A stretch of DNA of 64,000 nucleotides, from NCBI GenBank assembly GCA_028290905.1, contig JAQGIW010000170.1, forward strand, positions 17,091 to 81,090, in the 5' to 3' direction. Below the pieces are notes generated by a model. That model had not been told where the DNA came from, ran no database searches, and saw only the letters and a list, made by a program, of their open reading frames with translations. Source of the stretch: Caulobacteraceae bacterium. GTDB taxonomy: Bacteria > Pseudomonadota > Alphaproteobacteria > Caulobacterales > Caulobacteraceae. Shown here one piece after another: positions 3,032 through 36,410 of the stretch. The position numbers and the translations under genes were made by a program. The first letter of the stretch is position 1, and every line of letters starts with the position of its first letter.

Positions 3032-4249
3032 ATGAACATGGATGGCGCGTTGACGGGTGTGCGCATCCTTGACCTTTCGGCGGTGCTGATGGGCCCGTTC
3101 GCGACCCAGATGCTCGGCGACATGGGCGCCGACGTGATCAAGATCGAGCCGCTCGGCGGCGATCGGACGCGCCATAACGGGATCAGCCGAAACCCTGGGA
3201 TGTCCGGCTGGTTCATGGGCTTCAACCGCAGCAAGCGAAGCCTCGCTGTCGACCTGAAATCGCCGCAGGGCCGCGAGGTGATGCTGCGACTCGTCGCGAC
3301 CGCCGATGTGCTGCTCTATAACGTCCGCCCCGACGCGATGGACCGGCTCGGACTGGGTTATGCAGAGGTCTCCGCGGTCAATCCGAAGATCTTGTATGTC
3401 GGGGCTCTCGGGTTTGGTCGAGGCGGCCCCTACTCCGGCCTCGCCGCGTTCGACGACCTGATCCAGGCCGCCACCGGCATGCCATGGCTGTTCTATTTCG
3501 CAGGTGCCTCCGAGCCGCGCTTCTGTCCGACCCCGATCGTGGACCGGCTGATGGGCACTCAGGTCGCGATGAATATCCTGGGCGGGCTGATGGCGCGTCA
3601 GCGCACGGGCCGCGGGCAGCAGATCGACGTGCCCATGTTCGAGACGATGGCGCAGATCATGCTGGGCGACCATCTCGGCGGGGAGGCCTTTGAACCGTCG
3701 ATAGGACCCTGGGGATATCGCAGAATGTTGGCCCCGGAGCGGCGTCCCTATCGCACCCAGGACGGCTTCGTCGCGGCCTTGCCCTACTACGCCGAGCAGT
3801 GGAGCCGCTTCTTCGCGGCGGTCGGCCGGAGCCACCTGTATGACGACGACCCCCGGTTCGCGACGCCGGCCCTGCAACTGCAGAACGTCAATGAGCTCTA
3901 CGCCATGGTCGCGGAGATCATGTTGGAGCGCACCACGGACGACTGGCTCGCCCTGTTCCGGGAACTCGACATCCCCTCGATGGTCGTCAGTTCAATTCCG
4001 GATCTCATCGAAAACCCGCATCTCGAGGCGGTCGGCTTCTTCGAGGAGGTCGACCATCCAACCGAGGGCCGAATGCGCCAGATCCGCACGCCGTCGCGCT
4101 GGTCCGACACCCAACCGCACGCCCGCCGCCCCGCCCCGCACGCGGGCCAGCAGTCCCGGGAGATTCTCGAGGAGATCGGCTACCGCGCCGACGAGATCGA
4201 AAGCCTGCTCGCAAGCGATGTGATCCGGCAATGGTCGCCGGCCTCCTGA
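3032..4249 (+). CDS. family III CoA-transferase (CaiB/BaiF type)
   Basis: N-terminus GVRILDLSAVLMGPFATQMLGDMGADVIKIEP is the hallmark of the family. 405 aa. Confidence 0.85.
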   Translation: MNMDGALTGVRILDLSAVLMGPFATQMLGDMGADVIKIEPLGGDRTRHNGISRNPGMSGWFMGFNRSKRSLAVDLKSPQGREVMLRLVATADVLLYNVRPDAMDRLGLGYAEVSAVNPKILYVGALGFGRGGPYSGLAAFDDLIQAATGMPWLFYFAGASEPRFCPTPIVDRLMGTQVAMNILGGLMARQRTGRGQQIDVPMFETMAQIMLGDHLGGEAFEPSIGPWGYRRMLAPERRPYRTQDGFVAALPYYAEQWSRFFAAVGRSHLYDDDPRFATPALQLQNVNELYAMVAEIMLERTTDDWLALFRELDIPSMVVSSIPDLIENPHLEAVGFFEEVDHPTEGRMRQIRTPSRWSDTQPHARRPAPHAGQQSREILEEIGYRADEIESLLASDVIRQWSPAS

Positions 4250-4362
4250 TATGTGTATAACGCCTTTTATTTCTGGTTTTCGTTCGCCGGCGCGCTATAG
4301 TCGCCGACAGGCGAGCCGCTGATCGAGCCCCCTAACACACATTGACGGCAAGGAGGTGCGCA

Positions 4363-4860
4363 ATGGGAATGAACCTGACGATGATCAAGGCTATCCAGGG
4401 CCACATCGATTCGTCGTTCGACGATGATCGCTGGATGCTCGCTCCGGGCGATTCAGGCATACGTCTCAATTTCTGGTTCATGGGCGACGATCCCGACGGC
4501 CCGGTGGTCACCTGCAGCGTCTATCCGCCCAATCCGGACGGCAAAGAAAACGCCCCGGCCCATTCCCATTCCTCGGATACGATCCGGATCGTCGTGGAAG
4601 GCCGCTTCAAGGTCGGCACGAAGTGGTACGAAGCTGGCGAGATGCGGATCCAGGATGCGGGCCGCATCTACGGCCCCGAGGTGGTCGGGCCCGACGGGTG
4701 CAAACAGATCATCATCTTCGAGAAGCGCAGCTCCATTTTCCCCAACTATGTGAAGGATGAGGACACGCGCGCCCACGCAGCGGGCAAAGAGGCCTTCAGC
4801 AAACTGATGGCGCCGTTCAATCAACCGCGTGCCGCAAGTCCTGCCGCGGTAAGCCGCTGA
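4363..4860 (+). CDS. cupin-like hypothetical protein
   Basis: ATG at 4363 preceded by AAGGAGG (4350-4356). It has an HSHSSDT...VVEG...G pattern typical of cupin metal sites. Confidence 0.5.
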   Translation: MGMNLTMIKAIQGHIDSSFDDDRWMLAPGDSGIRLNFWFMGDDPDGPVVTCSVYPPNPDGKENAPAHSHSSDTIRIVVEGRFKVGTKWYEAGEMRIQDAGRIYGPEVVGPDGCKQIIIFEKRSSIFPNYVKDEDTRAHAAGKEAFSKLMAPFNQPRAASPAAVSR

Positions 4861-4882
4861 GCGCCATGTCCGCGCCCTGAGG

Positions 4883-6160
4883 CTAAGAGCGCTCTATTGG
4901 GGCGGAGGCGATCGCCGGGCTCGAAGGCCTGAACAGCGTCAGGGCGACCACGGCGGCCACGACGAAATCGGCGATCATGAAGAGACGCAGGGCCGCCGAG
5001 CTGGAGCCGAGGTCAACCGCGGCCCAACGCGCGACCAGTGGCGCGGAGAACAGGGCGAGGAAGGTAAGGGTGGTGTAGACGCCGACCGCGTGGCCGCGCA
5101 GCCGCTCCGGGGTGCGCTCCAGGAGCCAGGTCGACAGCACCGGATTCATCAGACCGTGGCTGACGCCCACGAGAGCGATGCCCAGCATCAGCGGCGCCAG
5201 GGTCGTCGCTCCGACCAAAAGCAGCGTGCCCACGCCGGCCGCGGCTATGGCCAGGGCGGTCTTGGCCGGCGCCGAAAGCCGTCGCAGCCAGCCGAGGCTG
5301 AAGGCGGCGACGGCTGCCGACCCCGCCATCAGCGAGATCCCCAGGCCTGTGAGCAAGGACGATCCCAGCGCCTTCTCATGCAGCAGGGCGCCAAGCTCGA
5401 AGCCCTGCGGGAAGATGATCGCCGAGCCGACGACGCTCAGGCCGAAGATGCTGAGCAAGGTCAGCCAGGGAGCTTTTCCGTCCGCCTCTGGCGTCGCGGG
5501 CGGGCCCGCGTGCGCGTGGTGGAGCCCGAGCGTCGCGGACTGGCCCGTCTGGGCGGGTCTGATCCCGGGCGCGCGAACCACCATCAGTGCGACGAGGAGC
5601 AGCGCCCCCGCGAACAGGGGCAGGAAGGCGTAGCGCCAATTGAGCTCGCCCAGCGCGCCGCTCGTCGCCGAAGTGAGCACCCCGATGACGGCGCTGACCC
5701 CGGCTTGCGCGCCCAGCCACCGCTGTAGCTTCGTCCCGGAATAGTAGTCGCCGGTCAGGGCCACCGCCGAGGGGATCATCAGCCCGAGCGCCAGGCCCGT
5801 GACCGCCCGCGAGACCAGGATCAGCATGAACGAGCTCAGCCATATCGGCATGATCGCGCTGAGCGCGAACACCGCCGTGCTGAGGATCAGCAGCCTGCGC
5901 CTGCCGACCTTCGCGCCCAACGCTCCGGCCGCGAGGCTGGTCATGGCAAGGGCGAGGGTCGGCAGGACGGCGACCAGCGGGACCAGCTGGGCGATGTTCG
6001 GCTGATCGGGGAAGGCCCGTATGATCGCCGGCAGGATCGGGACCGCCACGACGACGGTCACCACGATCATCGGCGGCACGAAGGTCAGGAGCGCCCCCTG
6101 GACAAAGCCCGCGTCCCTGTCGCGCCCTGTCGTTCCTGCGAGATCCGCCATGGCCGTCAA
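4883..6160 (-). CDS. MFS transporter
   Basis: 425 aa, about 12 hydrophobic helices, MFS-like loop GALGAKVGRRRLL between TM2 and TM3. Confidence 0.8.
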   Translation of the reverse strand: MTAMADLAGTTGRDRDAGFVQGALLTFVPPMIVVTVVVAVPILPAIIRAFPDQPNIAQLVPLVAVLPTLALAMTSLAAGALGAKVGRRRLLILSTAVFALSAIMPIWLSSFMLILVSRAVTGLALGLMIPSAVALTGDYYSGTKLQRWLGAQAGVSAVIGVLTSATSGALGELNWRYAFLPLFAGALLLVALMVVRAPGIRPAQTGQSATLGLHHAHAGPPATPEADGKAPWLTLLSIFGLSVVGSAIIFPQGFELGALLHEKALGSSLLTGLGISLMAGSAAVAAFSLGWLRRLSAPAKTALAIAAAGVGTLLLVGATTLAPLMLGIALVGVSHGLMNPVLSTWLLERTPERLRGHAVGVYTTLTFLALFSAPLVARWAAVDLGSSSAALRLFMIADFVVAAVVALTLFRPSSPAIASAPIERS

Positions 6161-6218
6161 CCTCCTTTGTCTGTTCCAACCAGGGTGCTGCGTCGGGCTG
6201 GGGAGCCTTGGAAGGTTA

Positions 6219-6297
6219 TTGACAGCGCTATGGTACGGATTATTATGTGTATAATGCCCTATAAACGGGCGATGGCAATAGGTTGCCGTCGGAAAAG
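6219..6297 (+). promoter_or_regulatory. promoter/operator/5'-hairpin cassette, full copy, faces VOC gene
   Basis: TTGACA 6219-6224, 16-nt spacer, TATTAT 6241-6246, GTGTATAATGCCCTATAA 6247-6264, hairpin CGATGGCA/TGCCGTCG 6270-6291, then GAAAAG. Confidence 0.55.
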
Positions 6298-6379
6298 ACG
6301 ACTACGGTGGCCTCAAGGTCTTCAAGATGAAGGCGGTGGCTTCCGCCAGGTTCATGGCGCTGCGACTGGGAGAGACGAA

Positions 6380-6802
6380 ATGATACGCATTCGGAAGATC
6401 GAGCACGTCGGGCTCCGCGTCGACGACCTCGCCGCGAGCGAGGCCTTCTACACTGGTCTACTGGGCCTGCCCAAGGTGGATATACGGCAGGTTGTTGGTG
6501 ACGTACGCCCGGGTTACCGGGAGGACCTGCAGAAAGTGACGGGCCTGCGGTCGGGAAAGGGCGCACTCTGGGTCCAGATCCCGGGCTTGCAGGTGCACCT
6601 GGTGACTGGCGACAAGGACCCAGGGGCGCCCAGCCCCTTCGACACCCATCTGGCGTTGGAGGTGGAGGATTTCGAGGAGGCCAAGCGGACCCTCGACGAG
6701 CGTGGGGTGAAGTATGTCGAGGCCCCCGAGGGCCTGCCTTACCGTCAGGCCTTTCTGACCGACCCCACGGGCAACACCATCGAGCTCTGGGCGTCGCGCT
6801 GA
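6380..6802 (+). CDS. VOC/glyoxalase-family protein
   Basis: MIRIRKIEHVGLRVDDLAASEAFYTGLLGL is a typical glyoxalase/bleomycin-resistance/dioxygenase N-terminus. The longer ORF from 6167 has no coding look. Confidence 0.8.
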   Translation: MIRIRKIEHVGLRVDDLAASEAFYTGLLGLPKVDIRQVVGDVRPGYREDLQKVTGLRSGKGALWVQIPGLQVHLVTGDKDPGAPSPFDTHLALEVEDFEEAKRTLDERGVKYVEAPEGLPYRQAFLTDPTGNTIELWASR

Positions 6803-6895
6803 AGCTGGGCCGCCAGCTTCGTCATATCCCGACGGTGAAAATGATCGCGATTTCCGCTCGACATGCAGCCTCCCAGGCACGAGCGGCCACTTGCC

Positions 6896-6927
6896 GCCCG
6901 GAAGCCCTGAGCTTCCGGGCGGTTTTT
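6896..6927 (+). terminator. rho-independent terminator
   Basis: Perfect 10-bp stem GCCCGGAAGC / GCTTCCGGGC with a 5-nt loop, followed by GGTTTTT. Lies downstream of the VOC gene. Confidence 0.7.
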
Positions 6928-7091
6928 CTGCCAGAGGTCTGCAATCGCCGGCGGGGAAACGCTTTTCAGCAGGGGTTCGCCGCGACCCCAACGCTAGCCA
7001 GCGTGAGGCCTGCGAGGCAAATAGGTCTGGCAGATTTCATGACACGCCGCACACGCCCTGACGGCGATTGGGCGCTGAGAAAGGTTTCGCT

Positions 7092-7544
7092 ATGACGGCC
7101 TCTCCCCTCGAGCTGACAATTGAAATGAAGGAAATGATCGCGAACGCCATTCCCGATAACGTGATGGTCTTTGCCGCGGTGTCGGTGGACGGTAAGCCTC
7201 TCGTTACCTTTCGCGGCTCCACCTCCGCCTACAGTGACGATCAGTTGAGTGTGTGGCTTCGGCATGCGGGCGGCAGTACGGAACAGGCTATCGAGCGGAA
7301 TCCCGAGGTTGTGTTGCTCTATCGCTCCAAGGCTGTCCCCATGCTGCAATTCAATGGCCATGCGCGCGTCACGACCGACCCCACGGAGCGCAATCGCGCC
7401 TACCAAATCTCCAACCCGTTGGAGCAGAAGCAGGATCCGGAGCGCAAGGGAACGGCGATCATTGTCGATCTAGACTCGATACAGGGCGTTGTAGGCTTCG
7501 GGGCGGACGGTCCCATCCGTTGCCACATGGCGCGGGACGCCTAA
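7092..7544 (+). CDS. pyridoxamine 5'-phosphate oxidase-like FMN-binding protein
   Basis: 150 aa. The pattern VMVFAAVSVDGKPLVTFRGS ... NPEVVLLYR ... ARV matches the PNPOx-like split-barrel family. Confidence 0.7.
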   Translation: MTASPLELTIEMKEMIANAIPDNVMVFAAVSVDGKPLVTFRGSTSAYSDDQLSVWLRHAGGSTEQAIERNPEVVLLYRSKAVPMLQFNGHARVTTDPTERNRAYQISNPLEQKQDPERKGTAIIVDLDSIQGVVGFGADGPIRCHMARDA

Positions 7545-7569
7545 TTCCTCACTACCGATGTTCCAGGCG

Positions 7570-7806
7570 GGCCTGGCCGAGCTTCGCCACCGAGGCCGAC
7601 GTCAAGGGCCTCCCTCAGCGTCAACGAGTGCGACTCCCTGCGCGACGAAGGCGTGAACTTCTGCCGCCTCCTGCTCCGCGCCGGCGTGCCCGCCCGCTGC
7701 CGTCAGCCAATAGTGACGACCCACTCCGTGGAGGTCCTCTCAGTGGCCTGCCCGGCGATCAGCCGGGATGCGTCCGCGAACCTGGCGTGGTTCGCACGAG
7801 GGTAGG
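7570..7806 (+). pseudogene. 3' fragment of an esterase gene (duplicate of 12290-12536)
   Basis: Nearly identical nucleotide run to the 3' end of the esterase at 11505-12536. There are substitutions and a roughly 12-15 nt deletion after GTCAAGGGCCTCCC. It has no 5' part. Confidence 0.8.
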
Positions 7807-7811
7807 GTGCA

Positions 7812-7842
7812 TTTATACGGCAAAATACACATATTAATCCGC
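7812..7842 (-). promoter_or_regulatory. partial copy of the cassette (operator part only, no -35)
   Basis: TTTATACGGCAAAATACACATATTAATCCG aligns with the operator and -10 part of the full copies. The TGTCAA element is missing. Confidence 0.4.
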
Positions 7843-7888
7843 GGAAGCTATGGCCGAAGCGGATTGTTTATGCTAGTCAGTGGATAAA
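7841..7888 (-). repeat. second intergenic motif family (TCCACTGACTAGCA... type), copy 1
   Basis: The reverse complement aligns with 11311-11359 and 16354-16403, with 14/14 over TCCACTGACTAGCA. Lies about 75 nt upstream of the TonB receptor start. Confidence 0.45.
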
Positions 7889-7957
7889 GCCAGTCAACTC
7901 CGCCGGAACCGCTCGTGTCGCACCGGCGTCGGCGAAAAGAGAATTAGGGAAGAAACC

Positions 7958-10174
7958 ATGGTCACAGTACGCCACGGCCTGTTCGCCTGCGTCGGAATCG
8001 GCGCCCTGCTGTCGGGGGCACGCCCGTCGGCAGCGCAGACCGCGCCATCGACTCCCCCGGCGGTCGCCGAGGTCGTGGTCACGGCGGAACGCCGCGAAAC
8101 CTCGGTGCAGTCTACGCCGATCGCGATCACCGCCCTGACGTCGAAAGTGCTTGAACGCGCGAACGTGGACACGGTCGAGCGACTGGTTCAGCTGGCGCCC
8201 TCGATCCATTACAACGATACGATCGGTGAGGCCTTCCTCTCGATCCGGAGCGTCGGCGGCGAGCCGAACGTAGCGGTCGGCGGCGACCCGTCGGTCTCCT
8301 TCAATGTGGACGGCGTCTACATTGCGCGGCCGACTTCGGTTTCGTCGATCCTCTTCGACGTTGACCGGATCGAGGTGCTGCGGGGGCCGCAGGGGACTCT
8401 TTACGGTCGAAACTCGACGGGCGGGGCCATCAATGTGATCACCAAGGCGCCGAACTTTACTCAGTTCGGCGGGACCGCGGACGTGATGTTCGGCAACTAC
8501 GACAGTGTGCGCGCCCGCGCCGCGATCAATATCCCGCTCATTACCGATCGCGTCGCCCTGAGGGTTAGCGGCGTGACCGACAGCCACAATGGCTACGAGA
8601 AGAACCTATTTTATCCGGATGGGTCCGACGACCTCGGCGATCTCAAGGTTCAGGCTTTTCGGGCGGAACTGGGGGTTCGGTTCACCGATCAAGTTGATGT
8701 GACGCTGCGGGCCGACACCACGAGTCGCGGCGGCCGCGGGCCCGGGCTGCAGTTACTAGGCCCATACGGGCAGTATTCCCACGCTCTTCCCTTCTCCATC
8801 ACGGCGCCGCCGCCGTTCGGCTATGGGGCGCCCCCGAATCCCGACATCCCCCTCGTCACTTCCCAGAATCTGCGGTCCGACCTCAGTGTGAAAGAGACTG
8901 GCGAGAGTGGGGAACTCCACTGGCACGGTCTGGGCGAGGCCGGATTGACCGTCATCGCCGCGCACCGGAATCTGGACTACAACTACCTCCAAGACCTCGA
9001 CTTTACCGCGGCGAATATGGCGAGTTCCCGCGCTTTGCAGCATTCTACCCAGGACTCGGTCGAGGCTCGCCTGGCGTCGGAGTCCAGCGGCCGGCTGACT
9101 TGGCTGGTTGGCGCCTACTATTTCCACGAGACGGGCTTCTCGGACGTGCCGACCAGCATTTTCTTGCCGAGCGGTTCCGTGCTCGCGTTTCAGGATCCGC
9201 GCCTCGACATCAAGTCCCGCAGCGAGGCCCTATTCGCTCAGGCAACCTATGCGCTTAACGATCGCCTGAAGCTGACCGGCGGCCTGCGATACACCTGGGA
9301 CCAGAAGGACGCGCTGCAGTACACCCGAGTTGGGCTCTCACCCGCCATACTCGCCATAGACGTCGCCACTCCGTTGAGCCATTCATGGTCGGCGCCGACC
9401 GGCAAGGTGACGCTCGACTACACATTGAACCCGGACGCGTTTCTCTACGCGACGATCTCCCGCGGCTACAAGGCGGGCGGCTATTCTATCACCGGTCCAG
9501 TCTATAATCCGGAAACGATCTGGGCGTACGAGACGGGCTTAAAGACGCAGCTGTTCGACCACCGCCTGCAGCTTGATTTCTCCGCCTTCTACTACGACCA
9601 GAAGAATCTGCAGATCGTTCAAACCAGCATCGGCCCCTTCGGCCCAGAGTTGGTCACCACGAACGCAGGCGCGGCGACAACGGAGGGAGTTGAGGTCGAA
9701 TTTCAGGCAACGCCCGTCCGCGCCCTTCAGCTTCGCGGAAGCGTGGCCTATCTGCACGCGCGCTACGACCAATACATGGACAATGATCCGCTACACCCTG
9801 CGCTCGGTCTGCAAAACCTGGCTGGACGGACCGCAGTCTACGCCCCGGACTGGACCGTCTCACTCGATGCGTCCTATCGATTTGACCTCGGCACGCTCGG
9901 CAGCCTTGAGCCAGGCGCCAGCTTCTACTGGGCCGACAAGCAGGTTCTGCGCGTCTTCGCGCTACCGGGCGACCTGCAGCCTGCCTATGACACCGTCGAC
10001 CTGCGACTTCTCTATCGTCCACCGGCTGGACGTTGGTCGATCGAGGCCTTTGCGGACAACGCAGGGGACACGAGATTCAAGCAGTTGAGCGAGGCTAGCA
10101 GCCTGATCGGCAACATCACTGGGGGTTATGGGCCGCCGCGCACCTACGGAATAAAGGTGTCCGTCGAGTTTTAG
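7958..10174 (+). CDS. TonB-dependent receptor
   Basis: Signal peptide ending SAAQ, plug motifs (VVVTAERRE, IEVLRGPQGTLYGRNSTGGAINVITK) and a C-terminal aromatic ending VEF. ATG 7958 follows AGGGAAG. Confidence 0.9.
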   Translation: MVTVRHGLFACVGIGALLSGARPSAAQTAPSTPPAVAEVVVTAERRETSVQSTPIAITALTSKVLERANVDTVERLVQLAPSIHYNDTIGEAFLSIRSVGGEPNVAVGGDPSVSFNVDGVYIARPTSVSSILFDVDRIEVLRGPQGTLYGRNSTGGAINVITKAPNFTQFGGTADVMFGNYDSVRARAAINIPLITDRVALRVSGVTDSHNGYEKNLFYPDGSDDLGDLKVQAFRAELGVRFTDQVDVTLRADTTSRGGRGPGLQLLGPYGQYSHALPFSITAPPPFGYGAPPNPDIPLVTSQNLRSDLSVKETGESGELHWHGLGEAGLTVIAAHRNLDYNYLQDLDFTAANMASSRALQHSTQDSVEARLASESSGRLTWLVGAYYFHETGFSDVPTSIFLPSGSVLAFQDPRLDIKSRSEALFAQATYALNDRLKLTGGLRYTWDQKDALQYTRVGLSPAILAIDVATPLSHSWSAPTGKVTLDYTLNPDAFLYATISRGYKAGGYSITGPVYNPETIWAYETGLKTQLFDHRLQLDFSAFYYDQKNLQIVQTSIGPFGPELVTTNAGAATTEGVEVEFQATPVRALQLRGSVAYLHARYDQYMDNDPLHPALGLQNLAGRTAVYAPDWTVSLDASYRFDLGTLGSLEPGASFYWADKQVLRVFALPGDLQPAYDTVDLRLLYRPPAGRWSIEAFADNAGDTRFKQLSEASSLIGNITGGYGPPRTYGIKVSVEF

Positions 10175-10201
10175 TTAATTCCAGTCACTGGCATTTCATG
10201 C

Positions 10202-11203: not shown

Positions 11204-11310
11204 GACTTGGGCTCCGAGTTGCGAGGAAGGGTCGTCGGCTTGCGGTGGATCCCGAGGTAGAGATCGTCGAGGGCATTCGTTAGCACGGTCGTCGTAAATC
11301 GCCATTAAAT

Positions 11311-11359
11311 GGATTAATCAATTGACTAGCATCAAATGGATCGCTTGGCCAGAGCGCCG
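11311..11359 (+). repeat. second intergenic motif family, copy 2 (contains palindrome GATTAATC)
   Basis: 41/49 identical to 16354-16403. Lies in the divergent region between the oxidoreductase (-) and the esterase (+). Confidence 0.45.
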
Positions 11360-11504
11360 CAGCGCACTGCGGGGTGAAGGCGCGCGCCGGCCTCCAATAA
11401 ACGCCATTTACTTGCATTAGCATGTTAATGGTGCTATAGGCGGCGATCCCGCATCACGGCGCCGCCGCGCATCCCGCGCCCCCCGCCTCAGGACCGCCGC
11501 CCAG

Positions 11505-12536: not shown

Positions 12537-12662
12537 GGGAGGCGGCATGCTAGGCCGCGCCCTTGCCGAGCAGGAGGTCGGCGTCTGCTTCGTCAGACCT
12601 GCCCACAGACCAGGGCGGTAGCTTCCTCATTCAACATTACATGGAAGCGGGATAGCTCAGTC

Positions 12663-13370: not shown

Positions 13371-13389
13371 ACGGCGTGAATAAGACGGG

Positions 13390-16403: not shown

Positions 16404-16404
16404 T

Positions 16405-17428: not shown

Positions 17429-18199
17429 CTATTTCAGCAGTCGCTCGACTTCCTTAAAGTATGGGATGAGGGACGCGAGCATCAGCCCGACGTTTGCCTC
17501 GAAGGTCGTCGTCGGGAGCGACCGTCGTCCGAGCCCGGCGGTCCAGCGAAACCATTGCGCGGGTCCCAGGACCGCCGCGGCCAGGAGATACGGGCGGGCG
17601 TCCTTCGCGGGATCGACGCCCATTCTTCCCGCCAGCGCCTCCTGCAACTCGAGGCGGAGGCGTTCCTCAAACTGGAGCATGTAAGCTGCGACCTCAGGCG
17701 CCTCGGTGGTGGCGACGATCTTCGCGCGAACCGTCTCCTGTTCTTCGTCGAGGCGCGTAACCAGAGCGCGCAGAGCCTCGACCGCTGTGATCAACAATGG
17801 CTCATCGTCTGCGCGAGCCGCGATCTCCTCCCGGAAATGGGAGATCGCTTCGTCGGAATCCCAGAACAGAACCGACTCCTTCGACTTGAAATGTCGGAAA
17901 AAGGTGGTGGGATCGAGGTCCGCCTCGCGGGCAATATCGACCACCGTCACGCGTTCATAGCCGTAGCGTGAGAATAGCTTGATGGCAGCCTTTTCGAGTA
18001 GAGCCCGGGTCTGCGCCTTCTTGCGCTCACGGCGTCCCGGGCCGCTGCCGTCATCGGCGCGCTCTCTAAGCTCGGGAGCGCGCTGTCCGCGCGCTGCCGG
18101 CGATTTCGCAGCTTTCGCATCTAAATCAGGGTGCGGTGGGGCCAAGGCCCCTTTATCTCGCGATGGACGCTTAGCGGGGTCGGCTTTGAACTTGGGCAT
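17429..18199 (-). CDS. TetR-family transcriptional regulator with basic N-terminal extension
   Basis: HTH region TRALLEKAAIKLFSRYGYERVTVVDIAREADLDPTTFFRHFKSKE, preceded by a roughly 55-aa Lys/Arg/Pro-rich tail. Confidence 0.85.
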   Translation of the reverse strand: MPKFKADPAKRPSRDKGALAPPHPDLDAKAAKSPAARGQRAPELRERADDGSGPGRRERKKAQTRALLEKAAIKLFSRYGYERVTVVDIAREADLDPTTFFRHFKSKESVLFWDSDEAISHFREEIAARADDEPLLITAVEALRALVTRLDEEQETVRAKIVATTEAPEVAAYMLQFEERLRLELQEALAGRMGVDPAKDARPYLLAAAVLGPAQWFRWTAGLGRRSLPTTTFEANVGLMLASLIPYFKEVERLLK

Positions 18200-19864: not shown

Positions 19865-19917
19865 GCCCGTCCTCTGATGCATCGTCCGGCCAAAGGGTGA
19901 GGCCGGCTCATTCACTA

Positions 19918-19964
19918 TTATAAGGCGTTATACACATAAAATGCCAACCGCCTAGGCTGTCAAC
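19918..19964 (-). promoter_or_regulatory. promoter/operator cassette, full copy without hairpin, faces monooxygenase
   Basis: On the minus strand: TTGACA (19963-19958), 16 nt, TTTTAT, GTGTATAACGCCTTATAA. Confidence 0.5.
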
Positions 19965-20075: not shown

Positions 20076-20660
20076 ATGAACCTTGACCTTCGTCAACTCC
20101 AGCACGCCCTGGGCGACCTCGTCGGGATGTTGAACCGGCCACAACCGGGTCTGGCCCTGATGCGCGCAGCGGGCATCTCACTGGATCGGGCCCTTTTCCC
20201 GCTCCTGGGCCGGATCGAACACCGCGGGCCGATCGGCATCGTCGAGCTCGCGGACCTCTCCGGCCGCGACTACACGACCGTCAGCCGGCAAGTCGCAAAA
20301 CTGGAAAGCCTGGGTCTTGCTTCGCGACGCACTGGCGCCGTGGACCGTCGCGTTCGCGAGGTCGTGGTCACGCCGGCGGGACTCGCCATGACGGGCGCGG
20401 TCGATGTGGCGCGCGACAAAATGTTGACGGCCGTTCTCGCGACGTGGAGCCCCCAGGAAATTCGTGAATTGGCGCGGCTCTCTCGAAAATTGATCGACGC
20501 GATCGCCGCGGCAGAGCCCTACGATCAGCTTATGACGCAAGAACCTCACCCTTCATCTGGCGAGGCTGCCATACCTGCTGACTCTGGCACGCGGGCCGTC
20601 ACGAAGGCGAAGTCGTTGAATCCTACGTCACCAAGACACGCGGCAAGGTCGCGGCGCTGA
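20076..20660 (+). CDS. MarR-family transcriptional regulator (3' end runs into an IS remnant)
   Basis: Winged-helix core IVELADLSGRDYTTVSRQVAKLESLGLASRR...DRRVREVVVTPAG. The last ~26 codons overlap the IS6-like fragment in another frame. Confidence 0.8.
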   Translation: MNLDLRQLQHALGDLVGMLNRPQPGLALMRAAGISLDRALFPLLGRIEHRGPIGIVELADLSGRDYTTVSRQVAKLESLGLASRRTGAVDRRVREVVVTPAGLAMTGAVDVARDKMLTAVLATWSPQEIRELARLSRKLIDAIAAAEPYDQLMTQEPHPSSGEAAIPADSGTRAVTKAKSLNPTSPRHAARSRR

Positions 20661-26035: not shown

Positions 26036-26055
26036 AGGGGCTTCCTCCTAGCTAA

Positions 26056-26102
26056 TTATAATGCATTATACACATAATATCCTGGCGATTTCGGCTGTCA
26101 AT
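26056..26102 (-). promoter_or_regulatory. promoter/operator cassette, full copy, faces hydrolase operon
   Basis: On the minus strand: TTGACA (26101-26096), 16 nt, TATTAT, GTGTATAATGCATTATAA. Contains the perfect palindrome TATAATGCATTATA (26057-26070). Confidence 0.55.
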
Positions 26103-26115
26103 GGCTCCAGCGGCA

Positions 26116-26187
26116 TTGACAGCACCGCCATTAATATGTGTATAATGTCATATAATGAACGACGGCAGTGGTTTGCCGTCGAAAAGG
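26116..26187 (+). promoter_or_regulatory. promoter/operator/5'-hairpin cassette, full copy, faces beta-propeller gene
   Basis: TTGACA 26116-26121, TAATAT 26132-26137 (spacer only 10 nt here), GTGTATAATGTCATATAA, perfect hairpin CGACGGCA/TGCCGTCG 26160-26181, then GAAAAG. Confidence 0.55.
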
Positions 26188-27288: not shown

Positions 27289-27365
27289 GGCGTTCACGTG
27301 CCGTGCGATAAGGCCTTGGCCATCTCGTACGCCCGATCGGTCTCGGGACCCGGGGTCGCGACCCC
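27289..27365 (-). pseudogene. 76-nt fragment duplicating the 3' end of the esterase gene at 29652-30533
   Basis: GGCGTTCACGTGCCGTGCGATAAGGCCTTGGCCATCTCGTACGCCCGATCGGTCTCGGGACCCGGGGTCGCGACCC aligns with 29655-29731 with a few mismatches. Confidence 0.65.
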
Positions 27366-27591: not shown

Positions 27592-28674
27592 ATGAATGAA
27601 GCCACTAGACCGCGCGAGGCAATCCTCGAACCCGAGCTGACGATCGTCGATCCGCACCATCACCTGTGGGACCGCCCGGCGGCCTTGATGGCCGCGCTGC
27701 CGCCGCCGAAGCACGGCTTTGAGCGCGTCATCCGCCGCGTGCCCCGCTACCTGTTGGACGAGCTGCTGGCCGACATGAAGAGCGGCCACAACGTCAAGGC
27801 CACGGTCTATGTCGAGTGCCACTCGATGTACCGGTCGACCGGGCCGGCCGAGTTCAAACCGGTCGGGGAAACCGAGTTCGCCAATGGCGTCGCCGCCATG
27901 TCCGCCAGCGGGACTTACGGTGACGTAAGGGCTTGCGCGGGCATCGTCGGCACGGCCGACCTGAGGCTGGGGGCTTGGGCGGCGGAAGTCCTGCAGGCGC
28001 ACATGGCCGCCAGCTCGCGCTTCCGCGGCATCCGGCAGAGCGCGCCCCATGATCCGGATCCGGACGTTCTGGGCCCGCTCGCCCTCTTCGAGAGCGGGCT
28101 CTATCGCCGGGATGATTTCCGCGAAGGTTTCGCTCGCCTCGCCCCGCTGGGCCTGTCCTTCGACGCCTTGCTCGCGGAGCCCCAACTGCCGGACCTCATC
28201 GATCTCGCCCGCGCCTTTCCGGACACCGCCATTGTTCTGAACCACGTGGGCATGCCGCTGGGCCTCGCCAGCTACGCCGGAAAGCGGGAGGAACGCTTTC
28301 CGATCTGGCGCGACAACATCCGCGCGCTCGCCAAGGCGCCGAAGGTGTTCGTCAAGCTCGGCGGCCTAGCCAACGTGTTCTCCGGCTTCCCGTCCTTCAT
28401 GGCCGATCCGCCGGCGCCATCGAGCCAGCTCGCTGCCGAGTGGAAACCCTATTTCGAGACCTGCATCGACGCTTTCGGGCCCCAGCGCTGCATGTTCGAG
28501 AGCAACTTTCCGGTGGATATCGGCAGCTGCGACTACGACGTCCTGTGGAACGCCTTCAAGCGGATCGCCGCCCGCTATTCCGCCGACGAGAAGACCTCTC
28601 TGTTCAGCGATGCTGCATGCAACTTCTATCGTCTGAACCCGGAGGATATTACATGTGTAATGCCTTATAATTAA
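27592..28674 (+). CDS. amidohydrolase-2 (PF04909-type) metal-dependent hydrolase
   Basis: IVDPHHHLWD motif, 360 aa. The last eight codons are encoded by an operator-like motif. Confidence 0.85.
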   Translation: MNEATRPREAILEPELTIVDPHHHLWDRPAALMAALPPPKHGFERVIRRVPRYLLDELLADMKSGHNVKATVYVECHSMYRSTGPAEFKPVGETEFANGVAAMSASGTYGDVRACAGIVGTADLRLGAWAAEVLQAHMAASSRFRGIRQSAPHDPDPDVLGPLALFESGLYRRDDFREGFARLAPLGLSFDALLAEPQLPDLIDLARAFPDTAIVLNHVGMPLGLASYAGKREERFPIWRDNIRALAKAPKVFVKLGGLANVFSGFPSFMADPPAPSSQLAAEWKPYFETCIDAFGPQRCMFESNFPVDIGSCDYDVLWNAFKRIAARYSADEKTSLFSDAACNFYRLNPEDITCVMPYN

Positions 28675-28777
28675 GAGGCGCGCAAAAATGCGAATCCGGA
28701 ATCCACCAGTGGAATCGGCCGAGGACGTTCGGCGTTACGGCGTCGTTCCATCTGCGCTAGCTGACGGAGGCCTCTTA

Positions 28778-29651: not shown

Positions 29652-30533
29652 TCAGGCGTTCACGTGCCGTGCGATGAAGGCCTTGGCCATCTCGTGCGCC
29701 CGATCGGTCTGCGGACCGGGGGTCGCGACCCACTCGTGCAGGCAGTCCTCGAAGATGGTGTAGTCGCACGAACCTCCCGCGGCCCTGTAGCTCTCGACGA
29801 AGCGGGTCTGCAAGGCTGGACGGACGTTCTCGTCGAGGGCCCCCTGCATGATCAGGAGGGGCGTCAGAGTGATGGCTTCACGCCGATCCAGGATCTCCTG
29901 CGGGTTGGCCTCGTGGATCGTTTCCCAAGGAACGAAGTAGGTCTCGTGGAACTTGGCCAACGCGGCCTGCTGCATCGCCTGGGCGTTCTGGTAGCGTTCG
30001 AACGTATTGCTGATCGGCGAGCGGGCGATGACGTAGTCGACCGTCGCATCGACAGCCGGATTCTCCTGCAATGGCAGGGCGTTGTAGCGAGGGTCGCGAG
30101 GCCGCATCGCCAGAAGCTCAGCCAGGTGACCGCCGGTGGAGCTGCCGAAGACCCCGATCCGGGATGCATCACCGTTCCACGCCCCCGCCTTCGCCTTCAG
30201 CCACCGCACGGCGTAGTTGGCGTCCTGTACGCTCGCCGGATAAGGGGCCTCGCGCGCAAGTGTCAGGTCCACAGCCACGACGAGGGCGCCGGCCGAGGCG
30301 AGGGCCCGGTCGAAGGGCTCTTCGGCGTGACGGTCCTTGAAGTTCCATGCCCCGCCATGCAGGTCGAGCACCACACGGAAAGGCCCCGTCCCCAAGGGCT
30401 GGTAGATGCGCGCCATCAGCGGTCGCCCTTGCGCCGTGCGGCGGTATTCGACCTCGCTCACTTCGATCTCGAACTTGGCGCCTGGGTCGTAGGTCGCCTC
30501 CGATGCTGTGTTCCGTGCCGCGTCCGAACCCAT
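29652..30533 (-). CDS. alpha/beta-hydrolase (esterase)
   Basis: LDLHGGAW oxyanion motif and GSSTGG nucleophile elbow, 293 aa. Confidence 0.85.
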   Translation of the reverse strand: MGSDAARNTASEATYDPGAKFEIEVSEVEYRRTAQGRPLMARIYQPLGTGPFRVVLDLHGGAWNFKDRHAEEPFDRALASAGALVVAVDLTLAREAPYPASVQDANYAVRWLKAKAGAWNGDASRIGVFGSSTGGHLAELLAMRPRDPRYNALPLQENPAVDATVDYVIARSPISNTFERYQNAQAMQQAALAKFHETYFVPWETIHEANPQEILDRREAITLTPLLIMQGALDENVRPALQTRFVESYRAAGGSCDYTIFEDCLHEWVATPGPQTDRAHEMAKAFIARHVNA

Positions 30534-30542: not shown

Positions 30543-31424
30543 CTAGCGACTACAGTGTGGCGAGTCAGAAATTCGCCATTGCCTGTGGCGGGCGGCTGAC
30601 ACGGTCTCTGCGGTCGACGGCCACCAGTTGAACCAGCGGCAGAGCGCCTCGCCCATGATCAGGGTCTTGTCGGTCTCCGACAGCCACGGCATCTCCTCGG
30701 TAAACATGGTGACGGCCTGGCGCCAGGTGCAATTGTCCAGGCGGGTGATGTCGGTTCCCCAGAACAGCCGCTCGGGACCATAAGCATCGTAGAGGCGGTG
30801 GATCCTGTCGTGCATGCCCTTGAAAGGGTATCCATCCTCACGCGCATAGTCTGGCGCCCCGCACAGCTTGACGGAGACATTGGGGAAGCGGCTCCATGAG
30901 AGCACATCCTCGTGCTGTATCAATCCGCGGGTTGGCGTCAGACCCATGATGCCGAAGTGGTCCACGGCAATCTTGAGGTTCGGATATTGAGCCGCCCAGC
31001 GCTCGAGGTGAGGCAGCACGAACGGGCCGCCGAGCACGACCGGTATATCCAACTCCGCGGCCAGCCGCAGGAACCAGTCCATGGCGCCGTCTGTCGGCCA
31101 ACTCCGCTCGTCCTCGAGGCCGCAGGGGGTCCTGAAACCGATCATGCCCGGCTGCGAGCGCCAGCGCTGCACCAGGTCCGGCGCCTCCGGGCGGTCCAGC
31201 TTGATCCAGCCCGTCGTTGCGAAACGCTCGGGAAAGCGGGCGGCGGACTCGATCGCATAGCGATTGGAGTCCATATCCCACTGCGGCGGGGCGTTGATCG
31301 CGGCGTCCACGCCCGCCGCGTCCATGTCCGCGAGCGCTTGCTCCGCCAAATAGGGTTTCCGCCCGTGGTGCGGCGGCGCCTGGTCGCCCTCCCAAAGATG
31401 GATCTGCGAGTCGATGATCAACAT
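30543..31424 (-). CDS. amidohydrolase-2 family protein (paralog B')
   Basis: About three quarters identical to 28778-29620 by eye. Even the out-of-frame ORFs of the two copies are similar, so conservation is at the nucleotide level. Confidence 0.85.
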   Translation of the reverse strand: MLIIDSQIHLWEGDQAPPHHGRKPYLAEQALADMDAAGVDAAINAPPQWDMDSNRYAIESAARFPERFATTGWIKLDRPEAPDLVQRWRSQPGMIGFRTPCGLEDERSWPTDGAMDWFLRLAAELDIPVVLGGPFVLPHLERWAAQYPNLKIAVDHFGIMGLTPTRGLIQHEDVLSWSRFPNVSVKLCGAPDYAREDGYPFKGMHDRIHRLYDAYGPERLFWGTDITRLDNCTWRQAVTMFTEEMPWLSETDKTLIMGEALCRWFNWWPSTAETVSAARHRQWRISDSPHCSR

Positions 31425-31437
31425 GAGAGGTCTCCGT

Positions 31438-33759
31438 CTAACGCAGGTGGTACGTCACCGTAGCGCCGAACGTCCTCGGCGGATTCCACTGCATCAGGGT
31501 GTAGTACGAGCCGGTGTAGCCGAATAATCCACCCGCGAGAGCGCCATAACCCTCTGTCGGGGTCCCGAAGCGCGTGTCAGTCAAGTTTCGCCCCCAAAGC
31601 CGCAAACCCCAACGTCCGTTAGCCGTCTGGAAATTAACTGACGCATTCACCAGGCCGTTTATGCCCGTCCGGTCATGAACCGCCGGCACGTCGTAAAAGA
31701 AGGGGCCGCTGAAACTCGCATTCCCGTTAGCGCTACTGCTCCAGACCTTGCTCCGGAATGTTATGTCGCCGCCGGCCGAGAGCGTCCCCCAATCGTAGCG
31801 CCATTGTCCTTCCGCCGACAAATTGAGCGCGTTCTTCGGCGTGAATGGTAGATAGTTTCCCGCAAAACCGGCGGCGTCCGTAGTAAGATACTTGTCGTCG
31901 GAATAGGAGTAGGTGGCCCCCAGGTGCAGCCACGGCGCCGGCACGGCATGAATTTCCAAATCCAGCCCTTGTGACCGGGTGCGGCCGGCATTGGTGGCGA
32001 ACGTCGTCGCTATCGAAGTCCCCGGTAGTAGGCCGTTAATCACAACCTGCAAGTTTGTGATGTCTTCACGATAGAGGTCTATGTTTGCTGTGAGCCGGTT
32101 GTCGAACCAACTGGTCTTCGCTCCGATCTCATAGTTGGTGGCGCGCTCCGTCTTAAAGGGAACCTGAAGGCCCGCTATGTCCGCGGCGAACGTCGCTGCA
32201 CCGGGACCCGTGCCCTCAAAACCGCCGCCGACATAACCTTGCGAGTAGGTTGCATAGAACAGGGTGTCTCTTGTCGGCGTAAATTCGAGCGTTGCTTTTG
32301 GCGTGAAGGCGCTCCAACTCCCATTCTGCGGCGCCACTAACACCGCGCCATCTACGCCGCCCTGTAAGCCGCCTTCTTCGACTACGCTTCCTGACTTGTG
32401 GTCGTAAGTGTATCGACCACCGAGGACGAGCTTTAGCCAATCCGTAAACTTGTAACCGATCTCGGCAAACCCCGACGCACTCTTAGCGTCAATCGTCGCT
32501 ATGTCATATTGTGGGCCTGAACCCAAGAAAGACAGCCCAAGGGACGGCGGGCTGTCAGGAAGGATTGTCGTTCTTTCCTCGTGAGACGTCGAAAGGTAGA
32601 CGCCTGCGAGCCACGTGAACTTTTGGTCATCGGGTGAGACCAGGCGCAACTCTTCCGTCACCTCCCAGTCATTCGCTATAAACAAGGAATCGAAGAAATT
32701 TACGGGATCGCCCAGCTCGCTTTTCTCCGAGGTGGACTTGTTGAGCCTGTATCCCGTGATCGAGGCGAGCGTCGCGAAATCCAGGTCCAAAGCCGCATGC
32801 ACAAAAGCATTGAAGTCTTTGTGGGAACTCCTGAAATTGACGTTTTGCAAAGTCCTGTCGGGATCGTTGGGGACGCCAAACGTCGGGTAGTTGAGCGCCG
32901 GGTAGAAAGGCGATGTGCTCGCCACGAAAGAGCCGTCGCCCAGGTACGTCATCGGCGGCGAATCGGAGTCGTCCTGGAGATAGTCGGCGCCGGCCAGCAC
33001 CTTGAATTTGTCGGTCACGTTCGCCAGCACCTGTCCGCGGACGCCGAAGGTCCTTTGGGCGCCGATAGTCCCGCCCAAGGTAGGATCGTACACGTAGCCG
33101 TCCTGACGGTGGTAGTAGCCGGTGAGTTTCGCCGCAACTCGATCACTGAGCGGACCGGTCACGAGGCCCTGGAACTCACCAAGACCGTAGCTTCCGCCGG
33201 TTGCCTCGAGTTCAAGGTCACGCGTGAAGCTCGGCGCCTTAGTGTGAATTGAAATGACGCCGCCAATGGTGTTCTTGCCGAATGCGGTGCCCTGAGGCCC
33301 TCTGAGGACTTCCACGCGATCGATATCAAACAGTTTCTCGTCACGATCCACGTGGCCGAACGTGGCCAGCTCATCGATGTAGACGCTCGACGGCTCGTCT
33401 ACACCTGGAGAATCGTCGATTCCCGTATAGGTGCCGCGCATGTTGATGCCGCTGAAGTCGGCCGGGCCAGGTATTGCGACGAGACCAGCTACGGCGTTTT
33501 GGAGATCGGTGTAAGTCTGCAGTCTTTGTTCCTTGATTGTCGCACCGCTGACGGCCGAAATGGAGGCCGCGACTTTCTGGATAGACTGGGCGCGCTTGTT
33601 CGCGGTGACCGTGATCATCTCAACGGTGGTCGGGGCCCGAGACTCCGTCACTGAATTGGCCGCTAGATCCGCTGCCCGAGCGCTGCTGGCGGCTAATACG
33701 ACAATAGGCGCCACGCTGATCAGCCCGAGAGCGCAACCGAGTGTTCTGTGTGCGGCCAT
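31438..33759 (-). CDS. TonB-dependent receptor
   Basis: Signal peptide MAAHRTLGCALGLISVAPIVVLAASSARA, plug motifs (VEVLRGPQGTAFGKNTIGGVISIHTK) and a C-terminal ...TYHLR. ATG 33759 follows GGGGAAACAGGGA. Confidence 0.9.
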   Translation of the reverse strand: MAAHRTLGCALGLISVAPIVVLAASSARAADLAANSVTESRAPTTVEMITVTANKRAQSIQKVAASISAVSGATIKEQRLQTYTDLQNAVAGLVAIPGPADFSGINMRGTYTGIDDSPGVDEPSSVYIDELATFGHVDRDEKLFDIDRVEVLRGPQGTAFGKNTIGGVISIHTKAPSFTRDLELEATGGSYGLGEFQGLVTGPLSDRVAAKLTGYYHRQDGYVYDPTLGGTIGAQRTFGVRGQVLANVTDKFKVLAGADYLQDDSDSPPMTYLGDGSFVASTSPFYPALNYPTFGVPNDPDRTLQNVNFRSSHKDFNAFVHAALDLDFATLASITGYRLNKSTSEKSELGDPVNFFDSLFIANDWEVTEELRLVSPDDQKFTWLAGVYLSTSHEERTTILPDSPPSLGLSFLGSGPQYDIATIDAKSASGFAEIGYKFTDWLKLVLGGRYTYDHKSGSVVEEGGLQGGVDGAVLVAPQNGSWSAFTPKATLEFTPTRDTLFYATYSQGYVGGGFEGTGPGAATFAADIAGLQVPFKTERATNYEIGAKTSWFDNRLTANIDLYREDITNLQVVINGLLPGTSIATTFATNAGRTRSQGLDLEIHAVPAPWLHLGATYSYSDDKYLTTDAAGFAGNYLPFTPKNALNLSAEGQWRYDWGTLSAGGDITFRSKVWSSSANGNASFSGPFFYDVPAVHDRTGINGLVNASVNFQTANGRWGLRLWGRNLTDTRFGTPTEGYGALAGGLFGYTGSYYTLMQWNPPRTFGATVTYHLR

Positions 33760-33962: not shown

Positions 33963-34032
33963 TTTTCGACGGCCAATACCGTCGTTTATATTGCGTTATA
34001 CACATATTAATCCGTGTAATTGTCCTGTCAAT
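33963..34032 (-). promoter_or_regulatory. promoter/operator/5'-hairpin cassette, full copy, faces TonB receptor
   Basis: On the minus strand: TTGACA (34031-34026), 16 nt, TAATAT, GTGTATAACGCAATATAA, hairpin CGACGGT/GCCGTCG (33985-33968), then GAAAAC. Confidence 0.55.
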
Positions 34033-34887: not shown

Positions 34888-34959
34888 TTCAACGGCAGAC
34901 CAATGCCGTCGCTCATTTATACGGCATAATACACGTAATAGTGTATTTGTCCTGTCAAT
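34888..34959 (-). promoter_or_regulatory. promoter/operator/5'-hairpin cassette, degenerate copy (12-nt spacer)
   Basis: On the minus strand: TTGACA (34958-34953), 12 nt, TATTAC, GTGTATTATGCCGTATAA, hairpin CGACGGCA/TGCCGTTG (34911-34890), then GAAAAC. Confidence 0.5.
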
Positions 34960-36083: not shown

Positions 36084-36096
36084 CGTGACGGCTCCT

Positions 36097-36261
36097 CTAT
36101 CGCCCGGGGCCAGCGGGGCGGCCGCCCAGGGCGACGGCGCCGACCAGGGGCTCGGGCAGGCCGAAGCTGGCCGTCTCGGAGGCCCGGATGATGTCGCAGG
36201 CGAGCGCGATCTCGAAGCCGCCGCCGAGCGCCAGGCCATTGACCGCGGCGTGTGCGGCCAT
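36097..36261 (-). pseudogene. chimeric stub: TonB-receptor start codons (MAAH) fused to an internal enoyl-CoA hydratase fragment
   Basis: Translates to [41 protein letters not shown]..., the crotonase oxyanion-hole region. 54 codons, with the stop 13 nt before the SDR start. Confidence 0.65.
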
Positions 36262-36361
36262 TCTGTGTTTCCCCTAACCTTCCGTTCTTATGTGTTTCTG
36301 ACCAAGCTCCGTTCCAAAGGCTCCTTGAGCCCGCCCCTTGGACGATCGACGCGCAGTGGAC

Positions 36362-36410
36362 GTTTATGATACATAATACACATATTAATCTGTGTATTTG
36401 TCCTGTCAAT
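36362..36410 (-). promoter_or_regulatory. promoter/operator cassette, full copy without hairpin
   Basis: On the minus strand: TTGACA (36409-36404), 16 nt, TAATAT, GTGTATTATGTATCATAA. Confidence 0.5.

Follow-up and report, generated by a model that had tools for sequence, protein, structure and literature searches.

A recurrent promoter-operator module in a catabolic island of a Caulobacteraceae bacterium, and a MarR-family protein as its probable regulator

In a 64,000-nt stretch of a Caulobacteraceae genome (contig JAQGIW010000170.1; the whole stretch is referred to below as the window), one short block of sequence recurs in front of the genes of a catabolic island. An earlier note on this DNA had described the block as part of a single promoter/operator module placed before at least seven transcription units, and had considered both a single-regulator regulon and a propagating promoter cassette. 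Which regulator reads this block, and how did it come to stand before so many genes? Our analysis points to a strong sigma-70-type promoter joined to an operator that would be read by the MarR-family protein encoded in the island (20076-20660), with the regulon having grown largely by re-use of promoter cassettes. We assign this explanation a probability of about 0.7.

The box and its promoters

The recurring block, here called the box, is a 20-nt sequence, GTGTATAAYGCNNTATAAWN, with 10 copies within 4253-36381 and zero elsewhere in the window, which has a G+C content of 66%. We searched the window with GTGTATAAYGCNNTATAA, allowing up to 3 mismatches, and obtained 11 matches; these represent 10 sites, one palindromic site being counted twice. 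Dinucleotide-preserving shuffles gave an expectation of 0.06 matches, and their maximum stayed below 11, a count that was never attained. The housekeeping half of the window (ddl, ftsA, ftsZ, lpxC, bamD and others) contained 0 boxes. TTGACAG was found upstream of seven of the 10 boxes. The claim of one module in front of at least seven units is thus borne out, and the coordinates originally assigned to it were right to within a few bases (Table 1).

Five copies (-35 at 6219+, 19963-, 26101-, 34031- and 36409-) had the exact arrangement TTGACAG-N21-GTGTAT, equivalent to TTGACA-N16-TAWTAT followed by the box. The 16-nt spacing reported for five copies therefore holds when counted from the TTGACA hexamer. 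The remaining two of the seven copies described as full are non-canonical, with shortened spacers: in the copy at 26116+, TAATAT follows after 10 nt and a perfect TATAAT within the box after 19 nt, and in the copy at 34958- the spacer is shortened to 12 nt. In an independent scan with the sigma-70 consensus, four modules came out best of all promoter-like sites in 37 kb, matching at 10-11 of 12 positions. All seven full copies read toward a gene start 20-280 nt downstream, in agreement with the orientation that had been claimed. The box begins 1 nt after the -10 element, so that an operator of 20-25 bp starting at this point covers the expected transcription start.

To follow the module into other genomes, we used two scans. 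A strict box pattern, applied to 185,579 species-representative genomes, returned just 13 matches, a number close to chance expectation; they fell in taxa without relation to that of the window, most of the named ones being typically low-GC. The lineage is therefore not represented among the species representatives, nor is the regulon in the form seen in the window. Four exact matches to the strict pattern fell within a single locus of the Bacteroidota species Lacihabitans lacunae (L012, 5087-5723) at steps of 246, 126 and 245 nt, which looks like an unrelated tandem repeat. For the metagenome scan, which yielded 33 loci, the pattern was limited to the -35 element and the left half of the box. 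The other half, YATAA, was no part of this pattern and was present at 17 of 17 high-GC sites (16 loci), as against one of 17 low-GC chance matches (L025). Together with five loci fetched through orthologues of the MarR protein, the loci from the metagenome scan formed the set used for comparison. In about 20 metagenomic loci the module is kept in the same placement before orthologous genes, whose proteins are 75-98% identical.

Across 38 non-redundant sites, the consensus is TAWTAT joined directly to GTGTATAATGCCTTATAAW. This is the same module as in the earlier note, in a better form. Positions G1, T2, G3, G10 and C11 of the box are invariant, the left half GTGTAT being the invariant part of the box in the window, and C12 is strongly conserved, though it was N in every search pattern. 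In the segment TATAAYGCNTTATA of the consensus, 6 of 7 positions pair, and the box at 26073 carries a perfect palindrome. A long or contig-truncated open reading frame (ORF) starts on the same strand within 350 nt of 36 of the 38 sites. We used this count in place of an orientation test based on G+C content at third codon positions, which was set aside as too crude, since receptor and P450 genes score low in it and divergent genes are common. A generic repeat without orientation bias, of the miniature inverted-repeat transposable element or repetitive extragenic palindrome type, was rejected: no element ends were seen, and all full copies read into genes. The literature searched contained no match to the box sequence, and the operator resembled none found among the known ones. 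One TonB-receptor promoter in a related locus (L014, 5639-5685) carries two tandem boxes 27 nt apart (GTGTATTATGCATCTCTTAT and GTGTATAGTGCCTTATAA).

Four copies (boxes at 6247, 26138, 34003 and 34934) are accompanied by a hairpin that the earlier note had missed, CGAYGGCA-loop-TGCCGTCG-GAAAA, at a fixed offset of 19-23 nt after the box start; within the window, good matches to it were confined to box-linked positions. The 38-site consensus in addition holds TATAAT twice, 10 nt apart, downstream of the -10 element. Both features would suit a mechanism in which box and hairpin act in elongation or as RNA, either because phased -10-like hexamers (TAWTAT, TATAAT, TATAAT at 9-10-nt steps) cause sigma-dependent promoter-proximal pausing or because the leader stem-loop is an inducer-sensing cis-regulatory RNA. 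The hairpin varies in overall length (18 vs 22 nt, owing to the loop), which argues against a double-strand protein site of fixed spacing and fits an RNA stem better, and the VOC leader of ~130 nt is 89% conserved across lineages. However, Rfam gave nothing relevant for the hairpin or the leaders at gathering score or at E ≤ 1, covariation in the hairpin was no better than in shuffles, the leader showed 0 compensatory pairs (alifold), and folding z-scores were not significant. Moreover, the invariant positions G1, T2, G3, G10 and C11 lie outside the -10-like hexamers, and promoters with short leaders keep the box without a hairpin. We consider an action at the level of RNA or pausing very unlikely as an explanation of the box. 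The hairpin itself could be a 5' untranslated stem, a pause signal, or, on the opposite strand, a terminator-like insulator whose tail would be formed by the AT-rich box.

The regulator of the box

Two regulator genes of the island, encoding a TetR-family and a MarR-family protein, had been proposed as candidates. Exact look-ups of both proteins returned no identical record. The ORF at 20019-20660 matched the Pfam families MarR, MarR_2 and HVO_A0114, and its start was assigned to the ATG at 20076. This MarR protein has no NCBIfam name, and the nearest solved structure was a weak match (E = 8e-6). Close orthologues (74-96% identity) were found only in metagenomes and in one Caulobacteraceae metagenome-assembled genome. 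A box lies within ~200 bp of the MarR gene in the orthologue loci L014, L015, L016/L017, L018 and L051, in each of four gene arrangements. In the window, for instance, the box stands between the MarR gene and a divergent FAD monooxygenase gene; in L016 and L018, the divergent gene is that of cytochrome b561; and in L014, the MarR gene is followed by a box and then by an esterase gene in the same direction. MarR was the sole regulator gene in L014, L016/L051 and L018.

More distant homologues (56-64% identity), in which the recognition helix GRDYTT(V/I)SRQ is near-invariant, provided a second and stronger line of evidence. They were analyzed in four loci of unrelated context, L053 (Paracoccus onubensis), L054, L056 and L062, where the neighbor of the MarR gene is a single gene, coding for an FAD monooxygenase, an FMN reductase, a zinc-dependent alcohol dehydrogenase (Zn-ADH) or an unannotated product. 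Each locus contained exactly one GTGTAW-N-ATRCAC-ATAAT site per 10-12 kb, located 30-56 nt upstream of the start of its own MarR gene; for GTGTAW-N-ATRCAC, 0.005 sites are expected by chance in the four loci together. A putative operator thus stands at the regulator's own promoter in these homologues. Comparison of the sequences (GTGTAATATGCACATAATA in L053 and L054, GTGTATTATACACATAATA in L056, GTGTATGATGCACATATCA in L062 and GTGTATAATGCCTTATAAT for the window box) revealed a common left half, an ATGC core and a trailing ATAAT, with one additional base in the clade of the window.

The box-bearing MarR clade has a basic C-terminal tail (residues ~150-194; ~30-45 residues, K/R-rich, for example ...TKAKSLNPTSPRHAARSRR), which is absent from the distant homologues with the shorter palindrome. 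With this tail the protein might reach the AT-rich right part that the box has in addition.

Several points weigh against MarR as the regulator. The loci with close orthologues were fetched via MarR, so that the co-occurrence of gene and box is partly biased; the single unbiased, DNA-derived locus long enough to include the MarR gene is L051. In the window, the MarR promoter carries just CACATAAT, 8 nt before the ATG, in place of a full box; a full box is reached only at a distance of 140 nt, facing the other direction. Autoregulation in the window is therefore unclear. The symmetry axis of the window box (TATAA-N4-TTATA, positions 10/11) also differs from that of the distant palindromes (position 7), which makes the exact half-sites uncertain. 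Finally, regulator genes were surveyed within 64 kb of the host genome, and a regulator encoded elsewhere is possible.

Two of these points, the missing full box at the MarR gene and the restriction to 64 kb, would also suit a rival explanation: the box might be a genuine operator that is read by the local TetR protein or by a factor encoded elsewhere, its linkage to MarR being a by-product of location in the same island. The TetR gene lies directly downstream of the box-controlled FAD monooxygenase gene and could be co-transcribed with it. Yet no TetR orthologue was found in any box-bearing related locus, and TetR was rejected as regulator of the box; L052, the locus syntenic with the TetR region (12.4 kb, 92% identical), contains only a box without promoter. 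The sub-cluster around TetR has a different motif, TGCTAGTCARTKGATWAA, unrelated to the box, with 3 exact sites (0.02 expected) upstream of TonB receptor 1, the ADH_N_2 oxidoreductase and pirin. This motif is a candidate TetR operator or promoter element. The related palindromes at the promoters of distant MarR homologues, in unrelated contexts, argue against any regulator other than MarR. We regard a different regulator as unlikely, and of the two proteins first proposed, MarR is favored by its co-occurrence with the box and by these palindromes, while TetR is left with no apparent link. PheR of Sphingobium is a regulator of IclR type and unrelated.

A further segment has features in common with the distant operators. 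Between the SDR promoter and ddl, ~285 nt (36431-36715) are missing from the close relative L029. They hold a promoter-like TTGACC-N17-CAATAT with GTGTATTGCAATATGCAAC, in which, as in the operators of distant MarR homologues, GTGTAT and AATATGCA occur. An ancestral MarR promoter may have left this segment behind. Remnants of the MarR gene itself were looked for beside the duplicated promoters of cytochrome b561 type, and none were found.

Cassette types and their re-use

The promoters fall into three lineages, a division that the earlier note had missed together with the re-use of leaders and first codons. Type V precedes the VOC and beta-propeller genes, the beta-propeller promoter resembling the VOC cassette in the part from the -10 element to the hairpin. 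Type B precedes the esterase and FAD monooxygenase genes, and in relatives also P450 and SDR genes, with a common CCACCAATGA block upstream of the -35 element. Type T precedes TonB receptor 2, cytochrome b561 and SDR, with a common spacer GGACAAWTACAC, a common leader, the ribosome site GGGGAAACAC and ATGGCCGCACAC. Within each type, sequence is shared beyond the functional elements.

Such sharing raises the possibility of a copying artefact, in which a promoter-bearing repeat, a putative mobile promoter, was spread by duplication and recombination and the block after the -10 element merely hitch-hiked. Evidence for it comes from type T: the copies at 34003, 34934 and 36381 belong to a longer duplication of ~250-300 nt extending over leader and first codons. 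They are 80-85% identical over 60-110 nt, although the genes behind them are non-homologous. L029 (94% protein identity) has a single promoter between cytochrome b561 and ddl, whereas the window has the order promoter, SDR, promoter, receptor-start remnant, cytochrome b561; it is the SDR promoter of the window that is orthologous to the one before cytochrome b561 in L029. Judged by this comparison, the SDR region is a promoter duplication flanking an apparently inserted gene. Remnants of the TonB-receptor start (ATGGCCGCACAC...) are found on the minus strand at 34758, in the leader of the cytochrome b561 unit, and at 36261, in that of the SDR unit. From the first a short upstream ORF runs to a point just before the ATG of cytochrome b561; the second is out of frame with the SDR ORF.

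Type V has been re-used across genomes. The cassette at 6203-6389 is 89-90% identical over 82-188 nt to sequences in L049, L027 and L031, and is the sole DNA that the window has in common with these loci. There it drives a beta-propeller gene of only ~40% protein identity, joined at three different junctions; in L049 the fusion is in frame after ATG ATA CGC, linking MIR to the beta-propeller signal peptide. In L030, the VOC gene, its terminator and the beta-propeller gene (26168) are contiguous. In the window, ~19 kb (6936-26115) lie between VOC and beta-propeller, with box copies at both bounds. L036 has VOC and its terminator followed directly by a boxed BD-FAE promoter, and L039 has the same terminator-to-promoter junction.

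The type-B cassette, with its ribosome site and the start TTG AAG ACG CA, stands before esterase genes in some loci and before SDR genes in L016 and L021, and without this tail before P450 genes. Copying thus extends over non-homologous P450, SDR and esterase genes and includes ~20 nt upstream of the -35 element. In this interval, the block GCAAGCCGCCCACCAATGA occurs in type-B promoters of all three gene classes (L020 1503-1526(-), L016 5020-5042(-), window 26102-26125(-)) and is due either to descent of these cassettes from a common source or to an additional element of UP-like or activator type.

Against copying as the whole explanation, the types have only the -35 element, the -10 element and the box in common. 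The spacers are unrelated between types and, over the 38 sites, conserved only within one type, as one would expect if a regulon is under selection. The box is also kept where there is no promoter, at 4253, 28653 and 7830, the last being identical at 20 of 20 nt in L052 between different flanks. These three sites may be internal or roadblock operators, or relics. A related motif is moreover found at the promoters of the distant MarR homologues, which have no cassette. A repeat search found no terminal inverted repeats or target duplications at the module, and no transposase gene was present among the scanned ORFs. We rate the hitch-hiking account as quite unlikely. It is, however, compatible with the MarR regulon, cassette re-use appearing to be the way in which that regulon grew. 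Both readings offered in the earlier note thus find support: the propagating cassette in the same promoter, leader and first codons before non-homologous genes in the window and elsewhere, and a probable single-regulator regulon, with its operator over the expected start, in the conservation of -35, -10 and box before orthologous genes while spacers differ by type.

Homologous or illegitimate recombination is the simplest cause of this re-use. A bolder and rather doubtful proposal is that the cassette itself moves: pieces of 80-190 nt with the -35 element, the -10 element and the MarR box, in many cases also with hairpin and start codon, would recombine within and between genomes, with fusions sometimes in frame at codon 3-4 and with the 45-60-nt module or the hairpin as crossover site. 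If true, the moving cassette would be a dedicated and recurrent route of regulon growth, into which arbitrary genes are plugged, and not an occasional accident.

The region contains many further segmental duplications of 85-93% identity, among them 28707-29616 vs 30586-31491, 7570-7807 vs 12290-12538, 10344-10459 vs 14384-14495 and 27310-27364 vs 29677-29731. They include an inverted amidohydrolase gene pair and 3' or 5' fragments of Abhydrolase_3, ADH_N_2 and BD-FAE genes. Those in the stretch covered by L052 recur in that locus (92% identical), indicating that they are real and not assembly artefacts.

The island, the proposed circuit and known systems

Genes were annotated with Pfam and NCBIfam, the latter giving only subfamily-level names for the pathway genes (Table 1). 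The earlier note had called the controlled genes functionally unrelated. This is doubtful, as the set looks like one pathway, probably for uptake and breakdown of an aromatic or phenolic ester-type compound. In the relatives L014, L020, L034 and L045, the P450 operon carries its own box-bearing type-B promoter; the regulon thus probably includes an eighth unit whose start lies just beyond the left edge of the window. A strong intrinsic terminator (6893-6923(+); 13-bp stem and TTTTT) lies directly 3' of VOC, making this gene monocistronic in the window; in L036 and L039 this terminator borders directly on the promoter of the esterase. Rfam also gave a weak match to gyrA RNA at 10566-10657(+), in the ADH_N_2 coding region, which stayed below threshold (23.6 bits vs gathering 45, E = 0.14) and is most likely due to chance.

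Table 1. Boxes, promoters, regulator genes and gene order of the island (window positions).
Feature	Position	Strand	Details
Box sites from the box query (first G on own strand)	4253, 6247, 26138, 28653	+	
Box sites from the box query (first G on own strand)	7830, 19935, 26073, 34003, 34934, 36381	-	
VOC-type cassette (type V)	6203..6389	+	upstream block 6203-6218; -35 TTGACA 6219-6224; -10 TATTAT 6241-6246; box 6247-6266; hairpin 6270-6291; conserved leader; VOC ATG 6380
FAD monooxygenase (perhaps with TetR and cupin) promoter/operator	19916..19963	-	-35 19963-19958; -10 TTTTAT; box 19935-19916; ATG 19864; divergent from MarR
Esterase-operon promoter/operator, type B	26054..26101	-	box 26073-26054 with perfect palindrome TATAATGCATTATA; BD-FAE start TTG 26035
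Esterase operon	26035 down to 20705	-	BD-FAE, beta-propeller, FAA hydrolase, ApbA, acyl-CoA ligase
Beta-propeller (gene 26201-27265) promoter/operator	26116..26181	+	-35 26116-26121; box 26138-26157; hairpin 26160-26181; ATG 26201
TonB receptor 2/amidohydrolase/BD-FAE operon promoter, type T	33967..34031	-	-35 34031-34026; box 34003-33984; hairpin 33984-33967; ATG 33759
Cytochrome b561 promoter, type T	34890..34958	-	12-nt spacer; box 34934-34915; hairpin 34911-34890; ATG 34637
SDR promoter, type T	36362..36409	-	-35 36409-36404; box 36381-36362; SDR start at or before 36239
Box only	4253..4272	+	no consensus -35; directly 3' of CoA-transferase stop codon; 70 nt before ORF 4342-4860; same place in L036
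Box only	7811..7830	-	TAATAT -10, no -35, no downstream gene; at rearrangement junction ~130 nt upstream of TonB receptor 1, antisense
Degenerate box, 2-nt deletion	28653..28672	+	overlaps stop codon of amidohydrolase 27592-28674; 16 nt before ATG of duplicated amidohydrolase 28688-29620
MarR-family gene	20076..20660	+	194 aa, basic C-terminal tail; own promoter-like TGGACC-N17-CATAAT at 20040-20068
TetR-family gene	17429..18199	-	considered as box regulator; no link to box
Motif TGCTAGTCARTKGATWAA	7871-7888	+	
Motif TGCTAGTCARTKGATWAA	11314-11331, 16357-16374	-	
Left end	1-1113		P450 3' part (22-429), ferredoxin region, DUF3237; then Zn-ADH, SDR, CoA-transferase
After CoA-transferase			box 4253, small cupin-like ORF; MFS (-), module, VOC
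Sub-cluster without full modules	7880-17400		TonB receptor 1, ADH_N_2, Abhydrolase_3, SDR, FMN reductase, pirin, cupin, TetR
Middle of island			FAD monooxygenase (-) module, divergent MarR (+); then acyl-CoA ligase, ApbA, FAA hydrolase, beta-propeller, BD-FAE esterase (-) module
Right of esterase operon			module, beta-propeller, amidohydrolase, box 28653, amidohydrolase; then BD-FAE, amidohydrolase, TonB receptor 2 (-) module
Right end of island			cytochrome b561 (-) module; SDR (-) module; ddl

In the circuit that we propose, a dimer of the MarR protein would bind the operator at about -3 to +17 and block initiation or promoter escape at every unit, namely VOC, FAD monooxygenase, the esterase-to-CoA-ligase operon, beta-propeller, the TonB receptor 2 operon, cytochrome b561 and SDR, and probably also at the P450 operon outside the window. 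A substrate or intermediate of the pathway (probably phenolic, quinone-like or an aromatic acid) would release the repressor and switch on the whole island together. The ancestral state would have been a MarR gene beside a single divergent oxidoreductase gene, and growth of the regulon would have proceeded largely through re-use of the V, B and T promoter lineages by duplication and recombination.

If correct, this would pair, from sequence, a repressor of an uncharacterised MarR clade with its operator, in a lineage that is Caulobacteraceae-like and uncultured. The regulon would govern how an aromatic compound, probably plant-derived, is taken up (TonB-dependent receptor) and degraded (esterases, monooxygenase, P450, amidohydrolases), and the locus would show unusually clearly how a one-gene MarR circuit grows to a multi-operon regulon via whole promoter cassettes. 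The near-consensus promoter with its single operator could be used as a compact part for inducible expression in high-GC alphaproteobacteria.

MarR-family proteins control several regulons of aromatic and quinone metabolism, for example MhqR of Bacillus subtilis, HucR, PcaV, CouR and HpaR. In these systems a small winged-helix protein, encoded in or beside the genes it controls, represses until released by a ligand. The operators are AT-rich palindromes or pseudopalindromes of ~18-20 bp that overlap the -10 element and the start of several promoters, and the targets include VOC/glyoxalase-type enzymes, esterases, flavin reductases and nitroreductases. The island resembles them in having a winged-helix MarR gene at the locus, a pseudopalindromic box just after the -10 element, a similar choice of target genes, and co-occurrence of regulator and operator across genomes. 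It differs in the size and uniformity of the regulon, with at least seven near-identical consensus promoters in 32 kb, and in the extra basic C-terminal tail (~45 residues) of its MarR clade. The TetR gene of the island, together with a repeated motif upstream of three units, has the outline of a local TetR/AcrR-type system, whose motif is unlike the box. In kind, the regulon thus appears to be an ordinary repressor regulon, while its specific operator and MarR clade appear to be undescribed.

The growth of the regulon recalls the re-use of promoters described as putative mobile promoters, in which similar upstream regions stand before non-homologous genes within and between genomes (Nijveen, Matus-Garcia, van Passel, Mob Genet Elements 2012, PMC3575422). 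Here, too, genes that are non-homologous have near-identical upstream regions, both within one genome and across several, and are rewired into an existing circuit. Unlike those promoters, the re-used unit of the island carries a defined operator and belongs to one regulon, its fusion points can fall just after the start codon, as in L049, and no link to insertion sequences was seen. Cassette re-use in this island is a well-documented example of a known phenomenon.

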